Shown here in pieces: positions 32,425 through 45,516 of a stretch of 64,000 bases of DNA (positions are counted from its first letter, which is position 1; each line of letters starts with the position of its first letter). The translations under genes and the position numbers were made by a program. Under the pieces are notes generated by a model. It did not search any database. It saw nothing but the letters and a program-made list of their open reading frames with translations, and was not told where the DNA came from. The DNA is from Candidatus Binatia bacterium (GTDB lineage Bacteria; Desulfobacterota; Binatia; Bin18), in NCBI GenBank assembly GCA_963664395.2, contig OY761159.2, positions 2,176,001 to 2,240,000 on the forward strand, written 5' to 3'.

Positions 32425-33229
32425 CTAGAGCGTGTAGAAGGCGTAGCGCAGGGATAGCCACACCCCGTGGCTCGACAGATGGGCGCGCGTTCGACCCACA
32501 GTGAGCGGAACCAGGACATCCCCGTCTCGATTGACGACCCGCGCGATTCCCTCGTCGGTCTCGACAGCGCCGGAATCCGTATAGCGATACGCGAGCTCAA
32601 GCGTCAGTCGATCGGTAATCGCTGTGCCGACGCCCGCCGTCAGCATCCAAGCGAAATTAACCTGGTGTCCACCCGGAGCGATGGTCCGCGTTCTGGTGAA
32701 CTTCATACGGGTTTTGCCGATATCGATATACGTGGCGCCAGCGCCAGCGCCGATGAACGGGCTGAACGGCCCGAGCCGCGGCAGGCCCAACTGCGGCAGG
32801 TCCACATAGGCGGCAAACATGCCGGACAGGGAGGACAATCTCGCCGAGACCTCCTGCCGACCTTGAGTTTGCAAAAAGTTTGCACGACCGGTGAGGGTGA
32901 ATCTCGGACGGTATTGAAACAGGGCCTCAATCCGCAGGGCAGGCATGATGGCGTGGCCGAGCCCAAGCTCGAAGCCGGCCGGCGCGCTGAAATCGCCGTG
33001 CGTGCTCAAGGGCGCTCCGTCGTTCCCTGTCCCACAGCCATACAAGGCGTATATGGCCGGCGGGGCGTGGTTCGTACAGTCCTTGTCCTTGAAGCGCGTG
33101 TCCTCCGACCAATCGAGGCCGACTCCGGCCCGCACATAGACATCCTTCGCTTGAGCCCCGGGCCCTGGAGGGCAAAAATAGGGCCGCAACGACCACAACA
33201 ATCCTCCAGATTTGCCATCTCTTCATCAT
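32425..33229 (-). pseudogene. Opacity/OmpA-type outer-membrane beta-barrel protein with a one-base frameshift in the signal peptide
   Basis: SD AAGGA plus MMKRWQIWRIVVVVAALF in one frame; mature domain AQA-KDVYVRAG...PFIGAGAG..LELAYRY..LRYAF in another; span is 805 bp = 3n+1. Confidence 0.7.
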
Positions 33230-33280
33230 AATGTCCTTATGCAAGGCGGTCCGTAAATAATAACCCTTCAGGTGGATATA

Positions 33281-33374
33281 TCATATGCTATATAACATAT
33301 TGCATATGACGAATATATATTTGACAACTAATCTGCTGCATGCTATTTGGTTTGCCCTGAGCAACTGCTGAGGG
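33281..33374 (+). promoter_or_regulatory. Candidate promoter and operator-like inverted repeats of the defence operon
   Basis: TTGACA(33321)-17bp-TATTTG with upstream TG; IR TCATATGC-13-GCATATGA (33281-33309); imperfect IR CCCTGAGC-4-GCTGAGGG (33355-33374). Confidence 0.5.
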
Positions 33375-33380
33375 TTCATA

Positions 33381-36300
33381 ATGGCACGAACAAGCATCGG
33401 TATACCAGGAGACTATTCAACCCGAGTTCGGAATGTGCGGAACCGCCTGGAGTTGACCCAGGTCAAGCTGGCCGAGCGTATCGGAGTCTCCTTTGCAACC
33501 GTGAACCGGTGGGAAAACGGACAGTCGAAACCAACGCGCCTGGCCTGGCAACAGATTCTCAACCTTGAAGCCGGCCTTGAGACATCGCAGGATAATGCTC
33601 AACCTGCCGTAGCTGCATTGGACCCATTACCGCGGCTGGACTTCGCGGCCAAGCCGCACGTGGTCACCGCGGTGGCCGAGGCAACCCGTCTTGCCTACGG
33701 CTATCTTTTCAACCCAGCCTTTGCCTCAGAAATCTCTTTGATTGATCCGCTGCCGCACCAGCGGATTGCCGTCTATGAGCATATGCTGAGCCTGGCGCCA
33801 TTACGATTCCTGCTCGCTGACGATGCCGGCGCAGGAAAGACCATCATGACCGGCCTCTATCTCCGGGAGGTCTTCATGCGCCGCCTCATGAAGCGTGTCC
33901 TCATCGTTCCGCCGGCTGGGCTGGTCGGCAACTGGGAACGCGAGTTGCGCACGCTGTTTCGTCTGCATTTTCGGATCGTGCGGGGCGACGAGGCCCGCAC
34001 CGGAAACCCGTTCGTCGGGTCGGACAGCGACCGTCTCATCGTCAGCCTCGATACCCTGACCGGTGAACGCATGTTTACGCGTATGCGTGAAGCAGTAGTC
34101 TCAGGGGCCGCGCTTCCATACGACCTCGTAGTATTCGACGAAGCCCACAAACTGGCGGCGAACCGCGAGCAGGATTTCCATGTCCGCAAGACCGACCGCT
34201 ATAAGCTCGCCGAGGCGTTGGCAGGTCTGTCCGTCGATGATGCGCGCTGGGAGTTAGGCTGGTCGGCAACAAACGTCCTGCTGCTGACCGCCACGCCACA
34301 TATGGGCAAGGACTTCCCTTATTATTACCTCTGGAGGCTGCTCGCGCCGGACGCGCTTGCAACCTTCGATGCCTTCCAAGCCTTTCCGCAGGCGCAACGC
34401 TCCCGCCATTTTATCCGACGGACCAAGGAAGAAATGGTCCGCTTCGATGGTCAGCCCCTCTACCCGCAGCGCCAATGCGACACGCTGAGCTACACCCTCA
34501 GCCCGGCAGAGCAGCAACTCTACGAGGCAACAACCACATACATCTCCGAGACCTATAACAAAGCGCGCATTCTGAATCGCTCTGCGGCCCGTCTGGCCAT
34601 GAGCGTATTCCAGCGTCGCTTGGCCAGTTCGACCTACGCCTTGCTGCGTTCGTTTGAGCGCCGCCTGGAGCGCCTGGACGAAGCTATCGAACTGGTTCGC
34701 GCCGGCCGTGCCGACGAGTTGGACCGCCGCCAGCAGCGTCTCGGGAAGACACCGGATTTTTTTGAAACGCACACCGCAGATGAAGACATTGACGAGACCG
34801 GCGGGCGCGAACGCCACGAGGAGTTCGAAGATCATGCCCTGGGCACCCTGATCGCGCTCACGCTGTCGGATCTTCAGCACGAACGTTCCGAGGTCGAAAC
34901 GCTGGCCGGTCACGCGCGCCGGCTTGCCAATGCCGGTGAAGACTCCAAGTTCGAGAAACTCCGCGCGGTCCTGCGCGACCCGACCTTCGCCCATGAGAAA
35001 TTTATCATTTTTACCGAGCACCGCGACAGCGCGGAATTCCTCGTCCGGCGTCTCGAAGGACTGGGCTTCACCGGACAAGTCGCGTTGGTCCACGGCGGGC
35101 TCGACTACCGCGAGCGGGAAGTGCAGGTCGAATTGTTCCAGCGGTCGCCGGACCAGGGCGGAGCGACCTATCTGGTCGCTACTGATGCCGCGGGCGAGGG
35201 CATCAACCTCCAGTTCTGCTGGTTAATGGTGAACTATGACGTGCCCTGGAATCCGGCCCGCCTGGAACAACGCATGGGCCGCATCCACCGCTACGGGCAG
35301 AAACGCGACCCGGTCATCATCGTCAACCTGATTGCCGGCGAGACGCGCGAGGGGCGGGTGCTCAAGACCTTGCTCGACAAGTTGGAAAACATCCGCAAAC
35401 AACTCGGGTCCGATAAGGTCTTCGACGTGGTGGGACGCCTGTTCGAGAACGTCTCGCTCCAGGCATACATGGAGCGGGCTGCGACCGAAGACGGGGCGCG
35501 CGGCGCTATCGAGGATATCGACAGCCGTCTGACACAAGAACAAGTGCGTGCGCTGGACGAGCGGGAGCGGGCGTTGTTCGGAGGCGGCGACGTCAAGAGC
35601 CGCCTGCCCGAACTCAAGGCCGCAATGGAGCAGGAAAATTATCGCCGCCTGTTGCCCGGCTATATTCGCCGCTTTGTCGGATCAGCGCTCCCCCTGCTTG
35701 ATATGAAATTGGAGGGCGACCTTGAGGAGGTCTTCAATCTCGCCCCAGAACGCGCGCGTGGTCTTGACCCCGTGCTCGGCGCTTTGGAGGCTTACCCGGA
35801 AGAGATGCAGGGCCGTTTCACAGTGTCTCGGCCACAAGGGGACGGCAACGCCGTCTGGCTGCACCCCGGCGAACCCGTGTTCGACCGATTTTGCACTGCC
35901 CTGTTGTCGCGCTACGGAGATGAGGCGTTACGTGGCACTATCTTCATAGACCCCCATGCCGACTCCCCCTATCTCTTCCATCTGGCACAGGTGTCGGTCG
36001 TTCGCCGCCAGCCGGCGGTAGCTCCTGACCTTCCCCATAAACCCAGTACGGACCGCGAGAGCGCGTATTCCGAAGTAGTCGAGAGCCGTCTGGTCGGGCT
36101 ACGGCAAGACAGCACCGGCGCAATCAAGCCCTGTCCTGTGGAGCACCTGCTGCTCCTGCGCGGCGCAGACCACGTGAAGCCCGGCAGCGTACCGCTGGCC
36201 CGCCAGGCACGCGGGCGGGCTGAAGCCGCGGCTGAATGGCTTCAGGGCGTCACGCTGGCACGCATGGTGGACGAGCACCGTGCACAGATCGAAAGCGCCC

Positions 36301-36980
36301 TGCCCGAGCGACTCGACTGGGCCGCCCGTGGGTACGACCACCAGGCGGCTGAGTTAATCGCCAAACGCCAGCGCATCAACGAACGGGCACGCAGAGGCGA
36401 TACGCGCGCCCGAGCCGAGCTTACCACGGTCAAGGCCCAGCAGCGCCGACTGACCGAGGACAAGGAGTGCCACCTTGCCAGGCTGAAGCTGGAGCCGTCT
36501 TGCATCGTTCCGGGCGAAGCGGTGATGATCGCCCACGCTCTTGTTCTCCCCTCGGACAATCCCGAAGAACGCGAACGGCACGCCGCCGAGGTTGAGGCCA
36601 TCGCTGTGCACTTGGCGCGTGCTTACGAGGAAGAGGCGGGTGCCAGCGTGGACGATGTCTCGCGGCCCGAACTGGCCCGCCGGGCTGGCCTCACCGATTG
36701 GCCGGGCTTCGACCTGCTGTCCCGACACTCTGACACCGGCGAGCGTGCCATTGAGGTCAAAGGTCGTGCCCACTCGGGCGGTATTGAGTTGAGCGAAAAC
36801 GAATGGGCCAATGCCTGCAACCTGCGCGACGGCTACTGGTTATACGTTGTCTTCGACTGCGCTACACCCCGCCCGCGTCTGGTGCGGGTGCGCGACCCGT
36901 TTGGTAAACTGCTCGCCAAGAGCCGCAACGCCACCGCCTACACCATCTCGCCCAAGTCGATTTTGGAAGTAGCCGAGTAA
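33381..36980 (+). CDS. XRE-HTH + SNF2-like helicase + C-terminal DUF3883-like (PD-(D/E)xK) nuclease domain
   Basis: LTQVKLAERIGVSFATVNRWENG; LLADDAGAGKT, DEAH, LTATPH, EGINLQ, EQRMGRIHRYGQ; GFDLLS..IEVKG..LSENEW..YWLYVV. Confidence 0.9.
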   Translation: MARTSIGIPGDYSTRVRNVRNRLELTQVKLAERIGVSFATVNRWENGQSKPTRLAWQQILNLEAGLETSQDNAQPAVAALDPLPRLDFAAKPHVVTAVAEATRLAYGYLFNPAFASEISLIDPLPHQRIAVYEHMLSLAPLRFLLADDAGAGKTIMTGLYLREVFMRRLMKRVLIVPPAGLVGNWERELRTLFRLHFRIVRGDEARTGNPFVGSDSDRLIVSLDTLTGERMFTRMREAVVSGAALPYDLVVFDEAHKLAANREQDFHVRKTDRYKLAEALAGLSVDDARWELGWSATNVLLLTATPHMGKDFPYYYLWRLLAPDALATFDAFQAFPQAQRSRHFIRRTKEEMVRFDGQPLYPQRQCDTLSYTLSPAEQQLYEATTTYISETYNKARILNRSAARLAMSVFQRRLASSTYALLRSFERRLERLDEAIELVRAGRADELDRRQQRLGKTPDFFETHTADEDIDETGGRERHEEFEDHALGTLIALTLSDLQHERSEVETLAGHARRLANAGEDSKFEKLRAVLRDPTFAHEKFIIFTEHRDSAEFLVRRLEGLGFTGQVALVHGGLDYREREVQVELFQRSPDQGGATYLVATDAAGEGINLQFCWLMVNYDVPWNPARLEQRMGRIHRYGQKRDPVIIVNLIAGETREGRVLKTLLDKLENIRKQLGSDKVFDVVGRLFENVSLQAYMERAATEDGARGAIEDIDSRLTQEQVRALDERERALFGGGDVKSRLPELKAAMEQENYRRLLPGYIRRFVGSALPLLDMKLEGDLEEVFNLAPERARGLDPVLGALEAYPEEMQGRFTVSRPQGDGNAVWLHPGEPVFDRFCTALLSRYGDEALRGTIFIDPHADSPYLFHLAQVSVVRRQPAVAPDLPHKPSTDRESAYSEVVESRLVGLRQDSTGAIKPCPVEHLLLLRGADHVKPGSVPLARQARGRAEAAAEWLQGVTLARMVDEHRAQIESALPERLDWAARGYDHQAAELIAKRQRINERARRGDTRARAELTTVKAQQRRLTEDKECHLARLKLEPSCIVPGEAVMIAHALVLPSDNPEERERHAAEVEAIAVHLARAYEEEAGASVDDVSRPELARRAGLTDWPGFDLLSRHSDTGERAIEVKGRAHSGGIELSENEWANACNLRDGYWLYVVFDCATPRPRLVRVRDPFGKLLAKSRNATAYTISPKSILEVAE

Positions 36981-36997
36981 GATGAAAGGGTAACGAC

Positions 36998-37084
36998 ATG
37001 GGAGCCACACACGTCACCGTACTCATTTGCAACCCGGCCGAGCCGGACCGCACAAAATTCATGGAGGACATAAAGAGTGACTGA
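36998..37084 (+). pseudogene. Probable 5' remnant of a clan AA aspartic protease-like gene
   Basis: MGATHVTVLICNPAEPDRT resembles, from memory, the N-terminus of small clan AA proteases, but the ORF diverges and stops before any DTG motif. Confidence 0.4.
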
Positions 37085-38111
37085 TTTGAACATAAATCTG
37101 AATGTACCCGCCCTTGAAAAACTGGCGGACTATACTGCCAGCGGGATCGGTGCAGTTGCCGGACCAATGTTGGCCACATGGAAAGCAAGCAAAGAAGCGG
37201 AGGCAAAACGCATTACGGCACAGGCGGACGCGGATGCACAAATTACTAAAGCCGAGGCAGATGCCAGTAGCTTACAGATCATTGCTGACGCACAAGCCAA
37301 GGCTCGGCAGTCTATTGATGCGCCGATTGAATCAGGCCAAGGCACGCTGGAAATTCGCGGGGATACTATTACTCAACGTATAGAATTCCAGGAGAGGAAA
37401 CGGCAGAGCAATATCGTATCCGTCGTGCGCGCGGCCGCTGCCGAACTTGGGAACAAAGAAGTTCCCAATCACGAGCCAGACCCGGACTGGACCGCCCGTC
37501 TTTTCGACAGCGTCCAAGATGTCTCGTCAGAAGATATGCAGAAAATTTGGGCAAAAATTCTTTCCGGCGAGGTGGAAACTCCCGGAAGAACTTCACTGCG
37601 CACCTTGGACACTCTTAGGAACATGACAAAAAGAGATGCTGAGATGTTCAGCGACGCTTGTAGCTTTGTTTTTCGAGAAGGAGAAGTGTATTTCATTCTA
37701 CGAGGAATACCAGACGAGTACGATGCCCTTCGACATACTAAGCTACTTCATCTACAAGACTGTGGTCTCGCAGCGATTGGTCCGACGTCCTACAAACCTT
37801 CTAATGAAGCTATCTCAGAACTTGTATACCAGAGCCTTCTGCTTCAGATATCAAGAAACGCAAAGGCCCATTCGGGGCTTGAAATTTCAGTCTCAACGCT
37901 CACGACAGCGGGTGTAGAATTGTATCGGCTCTCGGAGCCTCAATTGCGTATGGACTATTTAAGGTCCTTTGCAGGAATTCTTCGTTCCCATAATCATCAA
38001 TTATCGAGTGCGCAGATTGTCAATCAACATTCTGACGGAAGATTAGAGCATCGAAATGAATTTACTCCGATTGAGCCAGAGTCCCAGCAGGTTGGTGGAG
38101 CCGCTAGATGA
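37077..38111 (+). CDS. DUF2806-domain protein
   Basis: RQSNI..V...PDPDW..F...DVSSEDMQKIWAKILSGEVETPG..SLRTL..L; visibly more AT-rich than its neighbours. Confidence 0.8.
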   Translation: MTDLNINLNVPALEKLADYTASGIGAVAGPMLATWKASKEAEAKRITAQADADAQITKAEADASSLQIIADAQAKARQSIDAPIESGQGTLEIRGDTITQRIEFQERKRQSNIVSVVRAAAAELGNKEVPNHEPDPDWTARLFDSVQDVSSEDMQKIWAKILSGEVETPGRTSLRTLDTLRNMTKRDAEMFSDACSFVFREGEVYFILRGIPDEYDALRHTKLLHLQDCGLAAIGPTSYKPSNEAISELVYQSLLLQISRNAKAHSGLEISVSTLTTAGVELYRLSEPQLRMDYLRSFAGILRSHNHQLSSAQIVNQHSDGRLEHRNEFTPIEPESQQVGGAAR

Positions 38112-38979
38112 CATCTGATCCCAAACGTCTCATCGAAGTCGATTTCCCACTCGAACAAGTCTCGCTCGACTCGGTACACGAGAAGAATGTGCGTCACGGG
38201 CATATTTCGACGCTGCATATCTGGCCGGCGCGCAGGCCGTTGGCGGCGTGCCGGGCGGCGTTGATTGCGACGTTGCTGCCCGACCCCGGCAATGCGGAGG
38301 AACGCAAGGCCATCTACCGGCGTATGGCCGGGACGGTGGTGGAGACGATCAAGCCGGAAAAGAAGAACGGCAAGACGGTTGAGAAGCGTAGGCGCGAGAC
38401 CCGTGACGGCATTCTGCATTGGGGACGCGAGAACGGCCCTGACCTCGACTGGTTCCGCGACAAAATACGCGAAGCCTATGGTGGCCGCGCGCCCAAGGTG
38501 CTGGACCCGTTCGCCGGTGGCGGGGCGATTCCGTTGGAGGCCATGCGGCTGGGCTGTGAGGTGACGGCCAATGACCTCAACCCGGTCGCCTGGTTCATCC
38601 TGAAATGTACGCTCGAATATCCGCAAAAGCTCGCCGGCCAGACCCGCCCGCTACCCGACTTTGCGCTGCAAGACCGGGACTTCATGGCGTCCTTCCTCAA
38701 GGCAAATGGCTATAAGGGTGCAGCGCTCAGGAGGGAACTTGCCAAGCTCCACCTTGATAAGGACGGCCTGGATAAGGATGGCGGGGTCGCTGAGCCGGAA
38801 CTCATCTACCATAAGCCGCTGCTGGACGCCGACCTTGCCTGGCAGGTGCGCGCTTGGGGCCGCTGGGTATTGGCGCAGGCGCGCAAACGGCTGGCTCGCC
38901 GCTATCCGACCTATGCTGAGTTTCAGGCGTTGAAACCGGCCTCAGATCATTCCTCCCGTGAACGTGTGCTGCAAAAAGA

Positions 38980-39070
38980 AACCCACCCCGGCCTTCGGCT
39001 ACCCCTCCAAGGAGGGGATAAGGCAAACTCCCCTCTTGGGAGGGGTGCCGCGTCAGCGGCGGGGTGGGTT
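38980..39070. repeat. 91-bp palindromic element within the methyltransferase reading frame
   Basis: 11-bp perfect terminal IR AACCCACCCCG/CGGGGTGGGTT; internal inverted CCCCTC..GAGGGG hairpins. Confidence 0.8.
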
Positions 39071-39330
39071 CCTCCGCTGCAACTGCTGGAACCGGACGCG
39101 GACGGCAAGACGAATGTCGGGCCGCTGAATGCCGGTTTCGCTAAAGCCTATCTTGCTGACCCTGGGCAACCGCGCTGGATAGCCAAGCCCACCGTCGCCT
39201 ATTTGTGGGCGCGAACCGTGCGCTGCAAGGGCTGCCGCGCCACCCTCCCGCTGCTCAAGACCACGTGGCTGGTAAAGAAGGACAACAAGCGCGTGCTGCT
39301 GACCGTGACGCCGCACGCTGACCGGACGGG

Positions 39331-39355
39331 CCCTTCGACGGGGCTCAGGACAGGC
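39331..39355 (+). repeat. 25-bp REP-like element (encodes PSTGLRTG)
   Basis: CCCTTCGACGGGGCTCAGGACAGGC; 24/25 match to the reverse complement of 41078-41102. Confidence 0.8.
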
Positions 39356-41077
39356 GTCGTGTTCGGCATTGAAAAGGATGTCCCGCCGGTCGGCGGCAAT
39401 GCCGCGCAGCGGCGCGAACACGACAAACGGCGCGGGGCCGGCACCATGAGCCGCTCGGGTGCGCAATGTCCCTGCTGCCCGACGATCATGAGCATGGATG
39501 ACATTCGCTACGAAGGCCGCGCCGGACGGCTGGGCGCGGTCATGACCGTAGTGGTTGTGGATGGGGTGAAGGGCAAGGAATACCGGCTGCCGACCGAGGA
39601 AGAGCTTCGGGTCACTGAGGTTTCGCAACAAGAACTGGCCGAACTCTACGAGCAGATTCCGTTCGGCCTGCCGGAGGAGCCGACACCGCGTCAAGGATGC
39701 CTGGTGCGGCACGTGCCTTGCGTGGACAAGTATGGACTTGACCAATGGGCGAAGCTGTTTACCGAAGCGGCAGTTGCTCTGTCTTGGCTCGTTCGTCGGA
39801 ATTGTGCGAGAACTCGCTCGGAGTATGGATGGTGATATGCCCGGGGACTGGCGTGAGGCGTTGATTGCGAGCCTTGCGTTGGTGAGCGATCGTATCGCCG
39901 ACCGTGGTAGCGCGATTGCTCATTGGGATGTGGGTAGAGAGACAGTGGTCAATACTTTCCAAAGATTCGCTTTACCGATCAGTTGGGATTTTTCCGAAAC
40001 GGCCGTCCTGAGCGAAACAACAGGCTCTTATTCCGGACAACTCGAATGGGTGGCCCGCTATCTGGAGCACGGGGTAAACGCTTCGACCTCTTCCGTGAAG
40101 CCGTACCCTGCTAAACGTAGTGCGATTAACCTCGAAGGAGAGTACGAGGCCATCATTACCGACCCGCCCTATTACGATGCCATTGGGTACTCGAACTTAA
40201 TGGACTTCTTCCATGTCTGGCTAAGGCGCTCCACACATGGCTTATCCTCTGACATCGACGCCGCTTTTCAGGAACCGCTTGGGCCGAAATGGGATCACGA
40301 CACCGGCGACGGCGAGTTAATCGACGATGCAAGCCGCTTCGACGGTGACAGAGCGCGTTCAAAGCAGAACTACGAAGACGGCATGGCCCGTGCGTTTCAG
40401 GCGTGCCACTCGGCGTTGAAATCTGACGGGCGGCTTATCGTGGCGTTTGCCAATAAATCGCCCGATGCCTGGGAGACGCTGGTCGCCGCGCTGATTCGCG
40501 CCGGATTTGTTGTTGACGGTTCGTGGCCGATTCAGACCGAGATGGGCAACCGGCCCCGTGCAATGGCCTCGGCGGCCTTGTCCTCTTCCGTCTGGCTCGT
40601 CTGCAAGAAACGTCCTCCTGCCCGACCCGGCTGGGACAACACTGTGCTGGCCGAGATGCGGGAGCGTATTCGCACGCAACTCCGCGACTTTTGGGACGCG
40701 GGTATTCGCGGCCCTGATTTCGTCTGGTCGGCGACCGGCCCGGCGTTGGAAGCCTTCTCCAAGTATCCCGTCGTGAAGAAGGCCGATGAAGCCGGCGCGC
40801 AGATGAGCGTCTCGGAGTTCCTGCGCGAGGTGCGCCGGATTGTGGTCGATTTCGTGGTCGGGCGCGTGCTCACGCAGGACGGCGAGGCCGAGGCCATCAG
40901 CGGGCTCGACGACGTCACGACCTATTACCTGCTGCACCGCAAGGATTTCGGCCTCGACAAAGCGCCCATCGGGGCCTGTATTCTGTACGCCCTGTCGTGC
41001 AACCTCTCAGACCGTGAACTGACCGACCGGCTTGACATCCTGGCACGCGCGGGCAAGACCCTGTTCGACGCCCTTGA

Positions 41078-41102
41078 GCCTGTCCTGAGCCCAGTCGAAG
41101 GG
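41078..41102 (-). repeat. 25-bp REP-like element, inverted copy (encodes PVLSPVEG on the + strand)
   Basis: GCCTGTCCTGAGCCCAGTCGAAGGG. Confidence 0.8.
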
Positions 41103-41513
41103 GACGACGACCGGACGGACGAGACCGAGGAGAGCGAGGCCGACTCCGGCGGCACGGGCAACACGGTCAAGCTGAAAGCCTGGCATCAGCGCCGGGCCAA
41201 ATGGCTCGGCATCGAGTCGCCACGGGAACGGCCCGTCCCGCTGATTGATCAGGCGCACCGGCTGATGCACCTGTGGCGGGCCGGCGACGAGGTCAAGGTC
41301 AACGATTATCTTGACACGCGCGGCCTCAAGCGTAACGCGCTGTTCGTCCAGCTTTTACAGGCGTTGATAGAACTCGCACCCGCCGGCTCCGAAGAGCGCG
41401 CCATTCTCGAATCGCTCTCCAACCACATTGCCGCCCACGGCGGCATCGCGCCGTCGCGTCAGGCCGCCCTTCAGCTTGGGGAGGCGGGAGGTTCGGAATG
41501 ACGGCGGGTTGCA

Positions 41514-41828
41514 TTGATTATGCTGGATAGAATACAAGCCCAAGCTCGTGCAAACATCGTCCGTGTGACGCAACACGCGCAACAAGAAATGGTTGAAGAA
41601 TCCATCTCGCTTGATGAAGTATTGGAGGCTATTTCTCAGGGGCACATCCTGGAAAACTATGCCCAGCATCGAAGAGGTGCGTGCTGTTTGCTCCATGGGT
41701 TCACCAAGGCGGGACGAGCTGTTCATGTTGTTTGCACGACGGCGCAACCGACTCTTGTCATCATTACAGTGTATGAGCCTAAATTGCCTAAATGGATCAC
41801 TCCAACCCAAAGGAGACGTACACCATGA
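41514..41828 (+). CDS. DUF4258-domain putative toxin
   Basis: TQHAQQEM, ILENY, GRAVHVVC, IITVYEP..W. Confidence 0.8.
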   Translation: MIMLDRIQAQARANIVRVTQHAQQEMVEESISLDEVLEAISQGHILENYAQHRRGACCLLHGFTKAGRAVHVVCTTAQPTLVIITVYEPKLPKWITPTQRRRTP

Positions 41829-42049
41829 AGTGTAGTATTGAGGGATGTCCGGGAGAATATGAACAGGGAACGGTCATGCACACCGTGCGTCACCATGGTC
41901 AGGTAACCGTCATTGACCACGTTCCGGCTGATGTATGTTCCGTATGTGGAGACGTGCTGCTGGAGCCGGACACTGTTCGCCGGATTGAAGCCTTGCTTCA
42001 AAAAAGGCAGAAACCGGCCAGTACGGTGCCCTTATACGAGTTCGCGTAA
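41825..42049 (+). CDS. YgiT-type zinc-finger protein (MqsA N-domain-like putative antitoxin)
   Basis: MKCSIEGC...HVPADVCSVCGD; ATGA coupling to the DUF4258 stop. Confidence 0.8.
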   Translation: MKCSIEGCPGEYEQGTVMHTVRHHGQVTVIDHVPADVCSVCGDVLLEPDTVRRIEALLQKRQKPASTVPLYEFA

Positions 42050-42079
42050 AGAGCCACCTTACAAGTGAACGAGGACGCT

Positions 42080-45000
42080 ATGACCAAACTTCCCTGGACT
42101 CCCTGGCACGAAGTGGTGACGCTGCGTGACGATGTGCGCACGGGCGAACTGTCGCTGGCCGACTTTGCCGCGGACCTGCACGACGTAATGATGCAGACCG
42201 GCACGCGGCCAATCTATGAGGACCCGGCGCGGTTTTTTGGCCTGACCTATCCGACGCTCTCGCTGCGCGACCTGGCAAAGGATGTGGTGCTGCGTCTTGC
42301 CGGGCAGAACACCAAAGCCATCCGGCAGCTTGAGCTGACCTACGGCGGCGGCAAGACGCATACGCTGGTGACGCTTCGCCACCTCGTACACGACCCTACA
42401 ACGCTCCCTTCGATTCCCACGGTCGAGCATTTCAAATCCCATATCGGGGTGCCCTTGCCGCGGGCGTGTGTGGTGGCGCTCAGCTTTGACAAGCTTGACG
42501 TAGAAAAGGGCATGCAGGTGCGTGGGCCGCAGGGGGAACTGCGCTGGCTCAAGCATCCGTGGAGCGTGCTTGCCTTCCAGATCGCGGGCGCAGACGGGCT
42601 GCGTGCCCTGCATGCCGACGGCAAAGCTGAGGAACGCGAGACGCCGCCCGCGGAACCATTGCTCGCTACCCTGCTGTCGCGACCGCAGGCTGACGGGCTT
42701 TCGACCCTGGTGCTGATCGACGAAGTGCTGATGTATGCCCGCGAGAAGGCTGCGATGGGTGAGGTGTGGCGCAGCCGTCTGATCGACTTTTTTCAATACC
42801 TGTGTCAGGCCGCAACCAAGGTTGACCGCTGCGCCCTGGTTGCCTCGCTGCTCGCCTCCGACCCGGAGAAGAGTGACCAGTTCGGCAAGGAGCTGAGCGC
42901 CCAGATATTTGAGATATTCAACCGGCAGCGTGAAGAAGGGGTGCAGCCGGTGCAGAAGGAGGACGTGGCTGAGGTGCTGCGCCGTCGGTTTTTTGAAACT
43001 GCGTCCATCACCGACCCGGAAGTCTTCCGTCCGCACGTCACGACCGCGGTGGCCAATATCGCCGAGCTTGAAGAGACGGTCCGTAAGGACCGAAAGAACG
43101 CGGAGGAACGATTTCTCCGTAGCTATCCCTTTCATCCTGACTTGACCGACATCTTTTATACCCGCTGGACGCAACTCAATGGCTTCCAGCGCACGCGCGG
43201 CATCCTCAGAACCTTTGCCATCGCGCTCCGTGACGCTGAGAAGTGGGACACCTCGGCCCTTATTGGGCCAAATGTGTTCCTGCCGGCTCCCGGAGAATCC
43301 GGTATTGCCGAAGCGGCCCGTGAGCTGACCGGTATTGCTACCCGTGAAGCGACCGAGGGAGCGGGCAACGACTGGAGCTCGGTTTTGGAAGGCGAGCTGG
43401 CAAAGGCGCGCACGATTCAGACCGAGCAGCCTGGGCTGAAGTTCCGAGAGGTGGAGCAGGCCGTAGGTGCGGTCTTCCTGAGTTCACAGCCCATAAATCA
43501 GAAGGCGCGCACGCCGGAGCTGTTTACGCTGACAGGCGCATCCCGCCCGGACCGCATCGAACTGGAGAAGGGCCTGCGGCGTTGGACGGAGCTGTCCTGG
43601 TTCCTTGACGAGGCCGAATTTGTGGCAGATGCCACTGACAACGGCCGGCCGCAAACCTTGCCGAAAGCCTGGCGTCTCGGCAACCGACCGAATCTGAAGC
43701 AGATGCATCACGACGCGTGCGCGAACCGGGTGACCGAAGAGTTGGTCGAACAGAGGCTCCTGGCGGACGTGCAGCATACGAAGAGCCTGACCCAGGGGGC
43801 TGCGCCGTCCGGCGTGCGCGTTCATACGCTGCCCGAGCAACCGCGCGACATTGGGAATGACGGCGATTTTCACTTTGCCATCCTCGGACCGAAGGCCGTA
43901 TCTGACTCGGGCAAGCCGAGTGCTGCGGCGCGCCGCTTCATCGACGAAACGACCGGGTCGGACCGGCCCCGCACGTATCGCAACGCGGTCGTGCTGGTTG
44001 CGCCGTCGCGCGACGGCCTTGAAGCGGTTCGCACCCGCATCCGCGAGTATCTCGGCTGGGAGGAAGTCCGCAGCCAACTCAGAGACCAGCCGCATGATCC
44101 TCTGCGTGAAGGGCGGCTGGCAGCGTGGACGGAAGAAGCGAGAAAACGGATTCCGGAGGCGATCCGTCAAGCCTGGTCTATCGTTGTGACGGTGAATGAG
44201 CAGAACGAGGTCCAGGCATTCAGAATCACGGTTGGCTCGGAGCCGCTGTTCTCGACCGTGAAAGCGGATAAACGCACGCGCATCCAGGACACTCCGGTCA
44301 GCGCCGAGGCCATGCTGCCGGGTGGCCCCTACGACCTGTGGCGCGAGGACGAACCGTCGCGGCGCGTCAAAGACTTGGTGACCGCATTTGCCGAGAACCC
44401 CAGGCTGCCGAAAATGCTCCGGCAGAAAGAGATTCTCGACACCATCAATCAGGGCGTGCAGGAGGGCCTCTTCGTCGCAGTGCTGACCCGTCCCGACAAG
44501 TCCCTCAAAACGTGGTGGCGCATGTCGGTTGACGAGACCGCTCGCAAGGACCCTGGGCTTGAATTATTCCTTCCCGAGAAAGCCGCCCTTTCCGAGCTCC
44601 AGCCGAATATTCTGATTCCCGGTGTTCTCCCGGAGTTGTGGACCGGCGAGTCCGTCTCCGTAGCCGATGTCGTGGCGTATTTCTCGGATGGCCGGACGAT
44701 CGCGGTACAACGCGAGGGGTACGAAGAGCCGGTCGGCATCCCGGCCTGTGCGCCAGCCGTGGTCGAGGGAGCAATAGCGGCTGCCGTTGGTCAAGGCGTT
44801 CTCTGGCTTGTGAACGGTCCGGCGAGTTTCCAGGCTGAGCCCCTTCCGACGGGCGTGTTGACTGCCGCCGCGCAATTGCGGGGACCGATGCCGCCGCTAC
44901 CGGTCGATAGCCTCACCCCTGAGGCATTGCCCGAGGCGTGGCAGGATGGACAAACGACGGCTCTGGCTCTGTCCATTGGTGTGTCTGCTCAGGGAGGACA

Positions 45001-45409
45001 ACCCGTACCGTGGATGGTTCTCCGTGACGGAATCGGCGGTGCGATCAAGGCAAGCTGGCTCGCACTCGCGCCGGGAAGCGGCTCTTGGCCGTGTGACGCC
45101 GCCGGGGCTTCTGCTGTAACGCTACGACAGCCCGAGACGCCGGCGGGCAGGAACGGCCCGCTGCCCGCCGGGCCGATGCAGATATCGGAAAGAACTGGAG
45201 TCTACACCTCTTCCGTGGAGCTGGACCCTTCCAATTTGCAGGATCTGATTGAGGTGCTGCCGGACATTATCAAAGCCGCGGCCGGCGTGCCGCTGCAATT
45301 CAAGCTGTCCGTCACCTTGGGAGACGGCCAGGAGGTCGGCTCCGACACGATCGAGTCTTTGAACACGCTGCTGGAGGAAGTGAGCGCGAATCTTCGCCTG
45401 AAGGCATAG
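42080..45409 (+). CDS. DUF499-family AAA+ ATPase
   Basis: PWHEVV.LRDD, FAADL, Walker A YGGGKTH, Walker B VLIDE, SYPFHP, FQRTRGILR; SD GAGGA. Confidence 0.88.
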   Translation: MTKLPWTPWHEVVTLRDDVRTGELSLADFAADLHDVMMQTGTRPIYEDPARFFGLTYPTLSLRDLAKDVVLRLAGQNTKAIRQLELTYGGGKTHTLVTLRHLVHDPTTLPSIPTVEHFKSHIGVPLPRACVVALSFDKLDVEKGMQVRGPQGELRWLKHPWSVLAFQIAGADGLRALHADGKAEERETPPAEPLLATLLSRPQADGLSTLVLIDEVLMYAREKAAMGEVWRSRLIDFFQYLCQAATKVDRCALVASLLASDPEKSDQFGKELSAQIFEIFNRQREEGVQPVQKEDVAEVLRRRFFETASITDPEVFRPHVTTAVANIAELEETVRKDRKNAEERFLRSYPFHPDLTDIFYTRWTQLNGFQRTRGILRTFAIALRDAEKWDTSALIGPNVFLPAPGESGIAEAARELTGIATREATEGAGNDWSSVLEGELAKARTIQTEQPGLKFREVEQAVGAVFLSSQPINQKARTPELFTLTGASRPDRIELEKGLRRWTELSWFLDEAEFVADATDNGRPQTLPKAWRLGNRPNLKQMHHDACANRVTEELVEQRLLADVQHTKSLTQGAAPSGVRVHTLPEQPRDIGNDGDFHFAILGPKAVSDSGKPSAAARRFIDETTGSDRPRTYRNAVVLVAPSRDGLEAVRTRIREYLGWEEVRSQLRDQPHDPLREGRLAAWTEEARKRIPEAIRQAWSIVVTVNEQNEVQAFRITVGSEPLFSTVKADKRTRIQDTPVSAEAMLPGGPYDLWREDEPSRRVKDLVTAFAENPRLPKMLRQKEILDTINQGVQEGLFVAVLTRPDKSLKTWWRMSVDETARKDPGLELFLPEKAALSELQPNILIPGVLPELWTGESVSVADVVAYFSDGRTIAVQREGYEEPVGIPACAPAVVEGAIAAAVGQGVLWLVNGPASFQAEPLPTGVLTAAAQLRGPMPPLPVDSLTPEALPEAWQDGQTTALALSIGVSAQGGQPVPWMVLRDGIGGAIKASWLALAPGSGSWPCDAAGASAVTLRQPETPAGRNGPLPAGPMQISERTGVYTSSVELDPSNLQDLIEVLPDIIKAAAGVPLQFKLSVTLGDGQEVGSDTIESLNTLLEEVSANLRLKA

Positions 45410-45516
45410 TCCCGCATACTGGATGAGCGTAGCGTATCCTATACGCCGCTGGATATTGCGCCGGACAAGAGTGCGGCATAAGACAGGAGGACCGCCAGTT
45501 GGACAGGAGACATACT

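Follow-up and report, generated by a model that had tools for sequence, protein, structure and literature searches.

The 64,000-nt window of Candidatus Binatia DNA analysed here (all coordinates are positions in this window) encodes, on the plus strand between 33381 and 45409, seven open reading frames (ORFs), three core genes among them. By their sequences these very probably make up a 12.2-kb Hma anti-phage island, Hma being the same system as the Type-1 DUF499-centred BREX-related (Type-1 BR) system, lodged at a site flanked by genes for an outer-membrane protein and an amidohydrolase. Hma is an already named system, of which this is a mostly ordinary copy, and nothing at the locus is new in kind as a defence system. 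Two features, both known from sequence alone, appear to go beyond what has been discussed in print: the pairing of a helix-turn-helix (HTH) domain in HmaA with a candidate operator, and a clade of DUF2806 genes linked to hmaB. Labels beginning with L, G, P and X denote related loci, genomes, database proteins and sequencing runs, respectively.

The assignment rests on matches of all three core proteins to the PADLOC-DB models of Hma, with E-values of 2.7e-158 for HmaA, 7e-52 and 9.5e-57 for the two fragments in which HmaB is encoded, and 3.6e-72 for HmaC. The models of other systems were far behind at all three proteins: for HmaA the next best were DrmD (1.7e-94) and BrxHI/BrxHII (6.3e-93), and the C-terminal fragment of HmaB showed a weak match to PglXI (4.2e-08). 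The arrangement of the locus is also that by which PADLOC defines Hma, with HmaA, HmaB and HmaC clustered and co-oriented on the plus strand within 12 kb and guest genes between them: the A-B slot contains a single ORF, and the B-C slot, a gap of 560 bp between hmaB and hmaC, contains two.

Core genes and their relation to known systems

Gene hmaA (33381-36980, plus strand) is intact and encodes a protein of 1199 aa that combines an XRE-type HTH, a Snf2/SF2 helicase and a C-terminal PD-(D/E)xK nuclease domain of the NOV_C/DUF3883 type. The protein matched PADLOC model PDLC00659 with 526.9 bits, residues 88-1158 aligning to positions 70-1131 of the 1176 in the profile. Pfam located HTH_3 at residues 17-59 (7.9e-10), SNF2-rel_dom, Helicase_C (6.3e-21) and NOV_C at residues 1072-1163 (1.8e-14), and the motifs GAGKT (150-154), DEAH (253-256), QRMGRIHR (630-637) and EVK (1125-1127) are present. 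The NOV_C match and the EVK motif provide the C-terminal PD-(D/E)xK on the helicase that characterizes Type-1 BR, and the nuclease is predicted to be active. Gene hmaC (42065-45409, plus strand, with a possible alternative start at the ATG at 42080) is likewise intact and encodes a DUF499 AAA+/STAND-like ATPase of 1114 aa, of which residues 12-806 align to positions 4-776 of the 941 in model PDLC00662. It bears a Walker A motif GGGKT (94-98), a Walker B motif LVLIDE (215-220) and the Pfam domain DUF499 (6.8e-19), and no HEPN match was found in it with Pfam.

The methylase gene hmaB is distributed over two overlapping ORFs of the plus strand, an N-terminal fragment of 575 aa (38108-39835) and a C-terminal fragment of 589 aa (39732-41501). 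In model PDLC00661 these cover positions 6-191 and 471-810, respectively, of 973. Pfam detected DUF1156 at residues 13-64 of the N-terminal fragment (7.7e-19) together with a marginal match to D12-class methyltransferases, and gave no match for the C-terminal fragment. The S-adenosylmethionine (SAM)-binding motif DPFAGGG occupies residues 133-139 of the N-terminal fragment, which also has two CxxC pairs, and the catalytic DPPY lies at residues 144-147 of the C-terminal ORF. By sequence, a DUF1156 N-terminus and a stretch of about 560 residues with two CxxC pairs between DPFAGGG and DPPY are those of a Type-1 BR methylase.

An earlier, sequence-only reading of this DNA had recognized a defence operon related to BREX that consists of a methylase, an ATPase and a helicase-nuclease, and Pfam and PADLOC agree with it. 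Its helicase with a C-terminal DUF3883 and its ATPase with GGGKTH and IDE motifs were both recovered, and the Pfam and PADLOC searches that it had called for found DUF499, DUF1156, DUF3883 and SNF2 and returned Hma. Where it described three very large co-oriented genes, the orientation and the sizes of hmaA and hmaC hold, but the methylase is two ORFs, so that the DPFAGGG and DPPY motifs it had placed in one methyltransferase, although real, fall on separate frames. The tight coupling claimed for the three genes has to be abandoned, a DUF2806 ORF occupying the hmaA-hmaB gap and two small ORFs the hmaB-hmaC gap.

No match to PglZ was found in any of the seven locus ORFs with Pfam or PADLOC, and BrxA, BrxB/F and BrxL are missing from the locus, which sets it apart from BREX; HsdS and HsdM likewise gave no Pfam or PADLOC match among these ORFs, which sets it apart from Type I restriction-modification (RM). 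The absence of PglZ and HsdS from the operon had been correctly stated from the letters. The DISARM core of DrmA, DrmB (DUF1998) and DrmC (PLD) is incomplete, there being no DUF1998 or PLD ORF at the locus, and the resemblance to DISARM is confined to the helicase, for which DrmD and DrmA score below HmaA and the NCBIfam DrmD model gives 340 bits against a cut-off of 610. The proteins also miss the equivalog cut-offs of the PLD-DUF1156-DUF499 system (NCBIfam NF042962-NF042964), with about 80 bits against 1000 for DUF1156_antiphage, 77 against 1200 for DUF499_antiphage and 151 against 1100 for phospholipD_antiphage, and no NCBIfam model above its cut-off names any of the three core proteins. 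An undescribed and unnamed methylation-based system apart from BREX, DISARM and RM, the proposal of the sequence-only reading, would accord with the NCBIfam result and with the lack of PglZ, HsdS, DrmB and DrmC among the locus ORFs, but it is refuted by the matches to HmaA, HmaB and HmaC and by the four papers that treat the system, and is given almost no credence. That reading, which had ranked the locus as the best candidate for an under-described system, had itself named the circumstance that would remove the novelty, a match to a characterized named system, and the core proteins match one.

Hma was defined from 1,638 operons in 26 phyla (Payne et al. 2021, PMC8565338) and renamed as the Type-1 DUF499-centred BREX-related systems in a survey that counted 2,446 taxa, proposed an RM-like model and suggested a shared ancestry of Type-1 BR and Type-3 BREX (PMC12839542). 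The island agrees with Hma as modelled in PADLOC and in PMC8565338 in its A-B-C order on one strand, in core matches over most of their length and in co-oriented guests in both slots; it differs in its frameshifted hmaB and in its guests, DUF2806 and a DUF4258/YgiT zinc-ribbon pair, for which PADLOC v2.0.0 has no model. With Type-1 BR as described in PMC12839542 it shares a DUF499 ATPase in the canonical form without an N-terminal HEPN, a DUF1156 N6-methyltransferase with a nested target recognition domain, and a Swi2/Snf2 helicase that carries a further PD-(D/E)xK, predicted to be active; there the ATPase is ascribed a BrxC-like core and a C-terminal tail of winged HTH and RNA recognition motif (wHTH/RRM) type. 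The HmaA of Halomonas meridiana SCSIO 43005 (PMC11232893) resembles that of the window in its Snf2 motifs I and VI and its C-terminal NOV_C PD-(D/E)xK. Likeness to Type-3 BREX (BrxC, BrxXI/PglXI, BrxHII, PglZ) is seen in the BrxHI/BrxHII matches of HmaA and the weak PglXI match of the C-terminal HmaB fragment, but the effector is PglZ there and a helicase-fused nuclease here, and PglZ, BrxA, BrxB/F and BrxL have no counterpart in the window.

A candidate operator upstream of hmaA

The fusion of an XRE-HTH to the helicase, noticed already in the sequence-only reading, was borne out by the HTH_3 match and is not unusual, PF01381 being present in 111 of the 120 clusters of homologues nearest to HmaA. 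Upstream of hmaA, 89 nt before its start, lies the 16-bp near-palindrome TATATCATATGCTATA (33277-33292), a candidate operator for this domain, which departs by one mismatch from the consensus TATAGCATATGCTATA. With up to three mismatches allowed, the window has a single occurrence and no scanned locus more than one, and the 5.04-Mb genome has two matches at up to two mismatches. All 13 HTH-bearing loci, the window included, have the palindrome 307-361 nt before the codon of helicase residue 86, with three mismatches or fewer in twelve of them and four in L018, and six of the 13 come from other phyla. By contrast, it was found in neither of the two loci whose HmaA lacks the HTH (L010 and L022), within 700 nt and at up to five mismatches. 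With all bases taken as equally frequent, the chance rate at up to three mismatches was estimated at about 4e-6 per position. Because the palindrome accompanies the HTH in 13 of 13 loci, is missing from both loci without it and is rare by chance, self-repression of HmaA through binding of its XRE-HTH to 33277-33292 is a well-founded inference from sequence comparison.

A promoter-like site, ATAACA-18-TATATT (33292-33321, plus strand), found by a consensus scan, abuts the palindrome and would place it at the promoter of the operon. This site is weak by itself, and it weighs against the proposal that three promoter-like sites were found in the region where 3.1 were expected, which is chance level; in the scan for promoters and terminators, no count exceeded the number expected from shuffled sequence.

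In RM systems, autoregulation by C proteins or by HTH-fused methyltransferases is known. The candidate pair resembles a C-protein circuit in that an XRE-type HTH would act on a palindromic site at the promoter of its own system, but in the window this HTH is part of the helicase-nuclease effector and neither forms a separate C protein nor belongs to the methylase. In the Hma literature, the main text of PMC12839542 has no occurrence of 'XRE', 'operator' or 'autoregul', and that of PMC11232893 gives only Snf2, Helicase_C and NOV_C for the Halomonas HmaA and leaves an HTH unmentioned, in both cases unlike the HmaA of the window with its N-terminal XRE-HTH. However, Table S6 of the latter work (Liu et al.) lists HmaA homologues that bear HTH_3, and HTH_3 occurs 284 times in its tables S3-S9. 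As these tables also contain DUF2806, both domains are already in the published data, although undiscussed in the main text of that paper.

The interrupted methylase gene and the activity of the island

The two hmaB ORFs correspond to a single gene in relatives. The N-terminal fragment can be aligned to intact HmaB up to residue 553 (about position 39766), its last 22 codons being out of frame, and the C-terminal fragment from its residue 12 (39765). In the intact protein P0121, residues 1-540 are collinear with the N-terminal and residues 540-1116 with the C-terminal fragment, the latter at 93% identity, and the closest database proteins (P0121, P0122 and P0123; 1107-1116 aa) are collinear with both fragments at 87-93% and 90-93% identity, respectively. 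Within the genus, six HmaB orthologues 77-81% identical to the C-terminal fragment are single open frames of 1107-1192 aa, and ORFs called from start codons in seven relatives measure 1090-1163 aa. In the DNA alignment the break was traced to 39762-39763 (plus strand), where the window has 'cc' and all eight aligned relatives have 'c'. This additional base divides DPFAGGG from DPPY, and no close hmaB paralogue exists elsewhere in the genome. HmaB is thus a member of Hma by sequence and probably not functional as encoded. A programmed or phase-variable switching of hmaB was rejected, since the extra base does not lie in a repeat tract.

Several observations weigh against taking the break at face value. 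When the site was checked in short-read metagenome contigs, the extra base found no confirmation: over 39566-40290, runs X1, X3 and X4 carry another allele, which differs by 40 letters and 10 gap positions, and the window allele has no contig cover. About 45 nt upstream of the +1 base there is, moreover, a compensated +2/-2 indel pair (39697-39721; in comparison with L010, P0121 and the X4 contig) that recodes eight residues, CLVRHVPC against PGAARAFS, and that fits local assembly trouble. The frameshift could accordingly be an artefact of assembly or strain mixture, the organism itself possessing an intact and fully RM-like Hma. To three indel differences within about 70 nt, this explanation adds the intact state of hmaA and hmaC and the 10 gap positions, which, as inferred from their total, are not a multiple of 3 and would fit an intact frame in the X1/X3/X4 allele. 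It is countered by the location of the extra base in a dinucleotide 'cc' with no homopolymer run, by the X1 and X3 contigs, which show no difference from the window in the flanking pieces and so attest an accurate assembly wherever this could be tested, and by the broken hma genes of relatives (hmaC in L013, hmaB in L015, L017 and L025, hmaA in L022). An artefact is regarded as rather unlikely, if well within reason.

Downstream of the break lies a hypervariable segment (39870-40137, plus strand) with no DNA-level alignment to eight of nine relatives. The blastn high-scoring pairs (HSPs) of L009-L016 end at 39681-39868 and restart at 40132-40158, and L017 is the sole exception, a single HSP over 39076-41462 spanning the segment at 74% identity. 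This part of hmaB is probably recombining; an exchange of alleles may have left the frameshift behind as a true scar, or it may, as discussed, be a local assembly fault. A silent donor copy of the segment was rejected, no second close hmaB match being present in the genome. As a separate observation, the differing alleles over 39566-40290 in the otherwise identical X1 and X3, X4 being a run of another study, suggest exchange of the variable part of the methylase among near-identical strains.

Repeats have also entered the gene. A dispersed palindromic repeat of about 95 bp, resembling REP or MITE elements, is inserted in frame at 38980-39074; the genome gave 71 blastn matches to a 131-nt query, up to 47 over one position, and in the metagenome contigs the depth rises steeply here. 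HmaB of L010, L011, L013 and L014 contains this insert too, and it is evidently tolerated, as intact orthologues carry it in frame. A second, 25-nt repeat at 39331-39355, with an inverted copy at 41078-41102 and 16 matches in the genome, is in frame as well; its copy at 39331-39355 adds eight codons and is common only to L009.

If the +1 base is real, methylation is lost and the island would depend at most on a methylation-independent activity of HmaA plus its guests. In E. coli, the Halomonas HmaA alone defends against T4, without HmaB or HmaC and without toxicity, and both its Snf2 ATPase and its PD-(D/E)xK (NOV_C) nickase are required to stop the phage (PMC11232893). In a complete system of this kind the effector is, by the published work, the helicase-nuclease HmaA; HmaB would be the N6-adenine methylase that marks self DNA, and HmaC a BrxC-like scanning or sensing ATPase by which HmaA is licensed on foreign DNA; the XRE-HTH of HmaA would bind the palindrome at 33277-33292 and throttle the promoter of its own operon, and the two guest cassettes may serve as independent back-ups of abortive-infection (Abi) type, one through the DUF2806 Abi family and the other through a toxin of the RelE/ParE superfamily (DUF4258). 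It speaks against the part given to HmaB that overexpression of HmaB left T4 infectivity unchanged (PMC11232893). Since T4 from HmaB-overexpressing cells behaved like wild type, even the model system offers no proof of an RM-like role for HmaB, and a strictly methylation-based self/non-self logic for Hma is likewise unproven.

That the island is instead a decaying remnant without defence, in which only the toxin-antitoxin (TA) pair is active and stabilizes it, is suggested by the split hmaB, the repeats inserted in it, the scar of an earlier cassette (36998-37053, see below) and the frequency of broken hma genes in relatives. Against this, hmaA (1199 aa) and hmaC (1114 aa) retain open frames and every catalytic motif, the inserted repeats lie in frame and recur in intact orthologues, and HmaA of the tested homologue is a working defence by itself (PMC11232893). 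Such a decayed state is considered improbable.

Two-subunit and split methyltransferases exist, and the two HmaB fragments might reassemble into an active two-piece enzyme, so that methylation persists. The break does fall between the SAM-binding and the catalytic half, and the C-terminal fragment has an in-frame ATG of its own at 39732; yet no clear ribosome-binding site precedes this codon, and no relative has a two-gene arrangement at the break, eight of eight being continuous, which makes reassembly highly improbable. An Hma island whose methylase is probably inactive as encoded is the preferred description.

Guest genes, cassette turnover and island borders

The guest in the A-B slot is a gene of 344 codons (37077-38111, plus strand) with a GTG start, a GGAGG 9 nt upstream and a Pfam match to DUF2806 (7.8e-37), whose stop overlaps the start of hmaB by 4 nt (ATGA). 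Its GC content is 0.49, as against 0.62-0.63 for hmaA and hmaB, and in all nine loci measured DUF2806 is lower in GC than both neighbours. A scan of contigs from one genome per species found 11 relatives, nine of which sit between hmaA and hmaB: four in Dehalococcoidia, one in Pseudomonadales, two in other Gammaproteobacteria, one in Latescibacterota and one in Binatia metagenome-assembled genomes, L015 being among these nine loci. In eight of the nine, DUF2806 ends 9-96 bp before hmaB; counting the window with its 4-nt overlap, nine of ten Hma-embedded copies directly precede hmaB, none of the nine by more than 96 bp. In pairwise identity, DUF2806 correlates with HmaB at r 0.64, compared with r 0.70 for HmaA and HmaB (six taxa, the pairs not being independent). 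More distant DUF2806 genes (28-35% identity; in the phylum sample, 5 of 401 genomes have the family) had no hma gene within their 1.5-kb flanks. The clade is large, with 1,094 proteins at an E-value of 0.001 or lower, the best 120 clusters all being at least 48% identical. Metagenome contigs yielded one short DUF2806 locus, without hmaA in the 1.9 kb upstream; a scan of viral contigs gave no DUF2806 match, PHROGs held no family for the protein, and the ESM Atlas returned solely DUF2806 clusters.

The position of nine of the 11 relatives in the A-B slot, the adjacency to hmaB, the correlation with HmaB and the lack of a PADLOC model would suit, in place of random cargo, a fourth component dedicated to one widespread Hma sub-lineage: an Abi effector coupled to HmaB and held in check by the Hma complex as PrrC is by EcoprrI. 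This proposal is tentative and, on balance, unlikely. DUF2806 also characterizes Belisama, a single-gene defence of Abi type from the chromosomal integron of V. cholerae, whose over-expression is toxic and with which cultures lyse at high multiplicity of infection (bioRxiv 10.1101/2024.07.02.601686). Belisama belongs to the same Pfam family as the gene at 37077-38111 and is likened to it by family, not by sequence, and its setting is an integron cassette as opposed to an Hma slot. An Abi role of the window protein, whether as a back-up or as a fourth component, is putative, being drawn from the family name, and it counts against it that no clear structural match was obtained: Foldseek found nothing in the PDB at an E-value of 0.001 or lower (best 0.084), and the best VIA-align Z was 4.9. 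In the AlphaFold2 (AF2) model itself (pLDDT 78.5, pTM 0.70), a long helix at the N-terminus is joined by a disordered linker to a helical core, and the C-terminus is alpha/beta and variable. Residues 183-287 gave many VIA-align matches to winged-helix domains with Z of about 4, which is within the stated noise of the tool. Kinship with ATP synthase subunit b was rejected, the profile search of PDB sequences giving no more than this compositional match, at an E-value of 0.25. In tables S3-S9 of Liu et al. (PMC11232893), DUF2806 appears in only one row of hmaA neighbourhoods.

The B-C slot holds what is by sequence a predicted type II TA pair on the plus strand. The toxin-like gene (41520-41828, 102 aa) matches DUF4258 of the BECR or RelE-ParE superfamily (Pfam, 7.9e-21), and overlaps by ATGA (41825-41828) the antitoxin-like gene (41825-42049, 74 aa), which encodes a YgiT-type zinc ribbon resembling the N-terminal domain of MqsA. 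The latter protein matched the NCBIfam model YgiT_finger (2.7e-09; 37.1 bits against a cut-off of 20.2), whereas its Pfam match to MqsA_antitoxin (3.8e-05) was below the cut-off, and it is without the C-terminal HTH of full MqsA. DUF4258 has been described as an uncharacterized member of the RelE/ParE superfamily (PMC11980606), and occurs 13 times in tables S3-S9 of PMC11232893. Locus L011 has the pair at the same place, at 93% and 90% identity. None of the three guest proteins of the window, DUF2806 included, matched a PADLOC v2.0.0 model at an E-value of 1 or lower.

In relatives the slots vary by species. Among their slot ORFs, of which 43 were scanned in PADLOC and 30 in Pfam, were NsnA/PD-T4-2-like genes, a PDC-M07A ATPase with a partner, Drt8, PD-Lambda-2 A/B and NsnABC, as well as class II prokaryotic Argonaute (pAgo) with a Cas4-like nuclease, TIR-like genes, STAND NTPases, HicA, HEPN and retropepsin-like genes. 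An earlier cassette has left a scar in the window, a 56-nt remnant (36998-37053, plus strand) of the 5' end of a gene for a retropepsin-like aspartyl protease; it aligns with the start of the ORFs that follow hmaA in L009, L014 and L015, and intact retropepsin-like ORFs in L012, L013, L014 and L015 match gag-asp_proteas/Asp_protease_2. Conversely, L012 retains the last 36 codons of a DUF2806 gene. These two scars indicate that one cassette replaces another. In other collections, embedded genes were reported in 931 of 1485 Hma systems, and for Hma, BREX, DISARM and Type I RM taken together 96.7% of embedded genes point the same way as the system around them (bioRxiv 10.1101/2024.01.29.577857); another count gives 66.5% of Hma with embedded genes (PMC11232893). 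The hma region of Halomonas is, like this one, an insertion hotspot for defence genes, with Septu and an AAA_21 pair as guests where the window has DUF2806 and a TA pair (PMC11232893).

Some slots of relatives deserve separate mention. The hmaA-hmaB slot of L017 (2555-6274) holds an XRE-HTH gene, the Cas4-like nuclease (1.9e-128) and the class II pAgo (1.4e-300). A STAND-type NTPase gene of about 395-400 codons, with AAA_16, nSTAND1 and NACHT matches and no PADLOC model, recurs directly upstream of hmaC (L009:12551-13738, L010:3969-5171, L014:13239-14432) and is absent from the window. Broken genes are found in several of these loci: hmaC is split in L013 (471-3796), hmaB and DUF2806 in L015 (7372-10669) and again in L025; DUF2806 is interrupted by about 1.2 kb in L026; hmaA is internally deleted and hmaB truncated in L022, and hmaB is broken in L017.

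The borders of the island were defined against empty sites in related species. Homology (blastn) to the empty-site intergenic region of L038 and L039 (genomes G005 and G004) stops at 33226 and restarts at 45450, and the island therefore extends from 33227 to 45449, about 12.2 kb. In both genomes the outer-membrane-protein and amidohydrolase genes adjoin, 200 nt apart (L038:1303-1504, L039:1302-1504), and in L037 the amidohydrolase gene directly follows ampG. The same chromosomal site is occupied by Hma in six related species (L009-L014), with HmaA 88-91% identical, and is empty in at least two other species of the genus. No integrase, tRNA or obvious direct repeats were found in the island. 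By Pfam, the flanks comprise an ampG-like gene of the major facilitator superfamily upstream and an Amidohydro_2 gene downstream; both had been named as neighbours in the sequence-only reading, but an outer-membrane beta-barrel gene on the minus strand (32425-33201) separates ampG from hmaA.

Taken together, species of the genus have retained a single chromosomal Hma scaffold, whose two inner slots swap defence cassettes (pAgo, DRT, Nsn, STAND, TA and others) that leave scars. Loss of the methylase, or exchange of its variable segment, can apparently occur with the nuclease gene still open, and methylase loss with an open hmaA fits the published non-toxicity of HmaA without HmaB. Should DUF2806 prove to be a fourth component, it would, together with the HTH-operator pair, make this a self-regulated, two-layered island. 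The candidate HTH-operator pair and the hmaB-linked DUF2806 clade offer concrete targets for the regulation of Hma and for the cooperation of guest and host systems.

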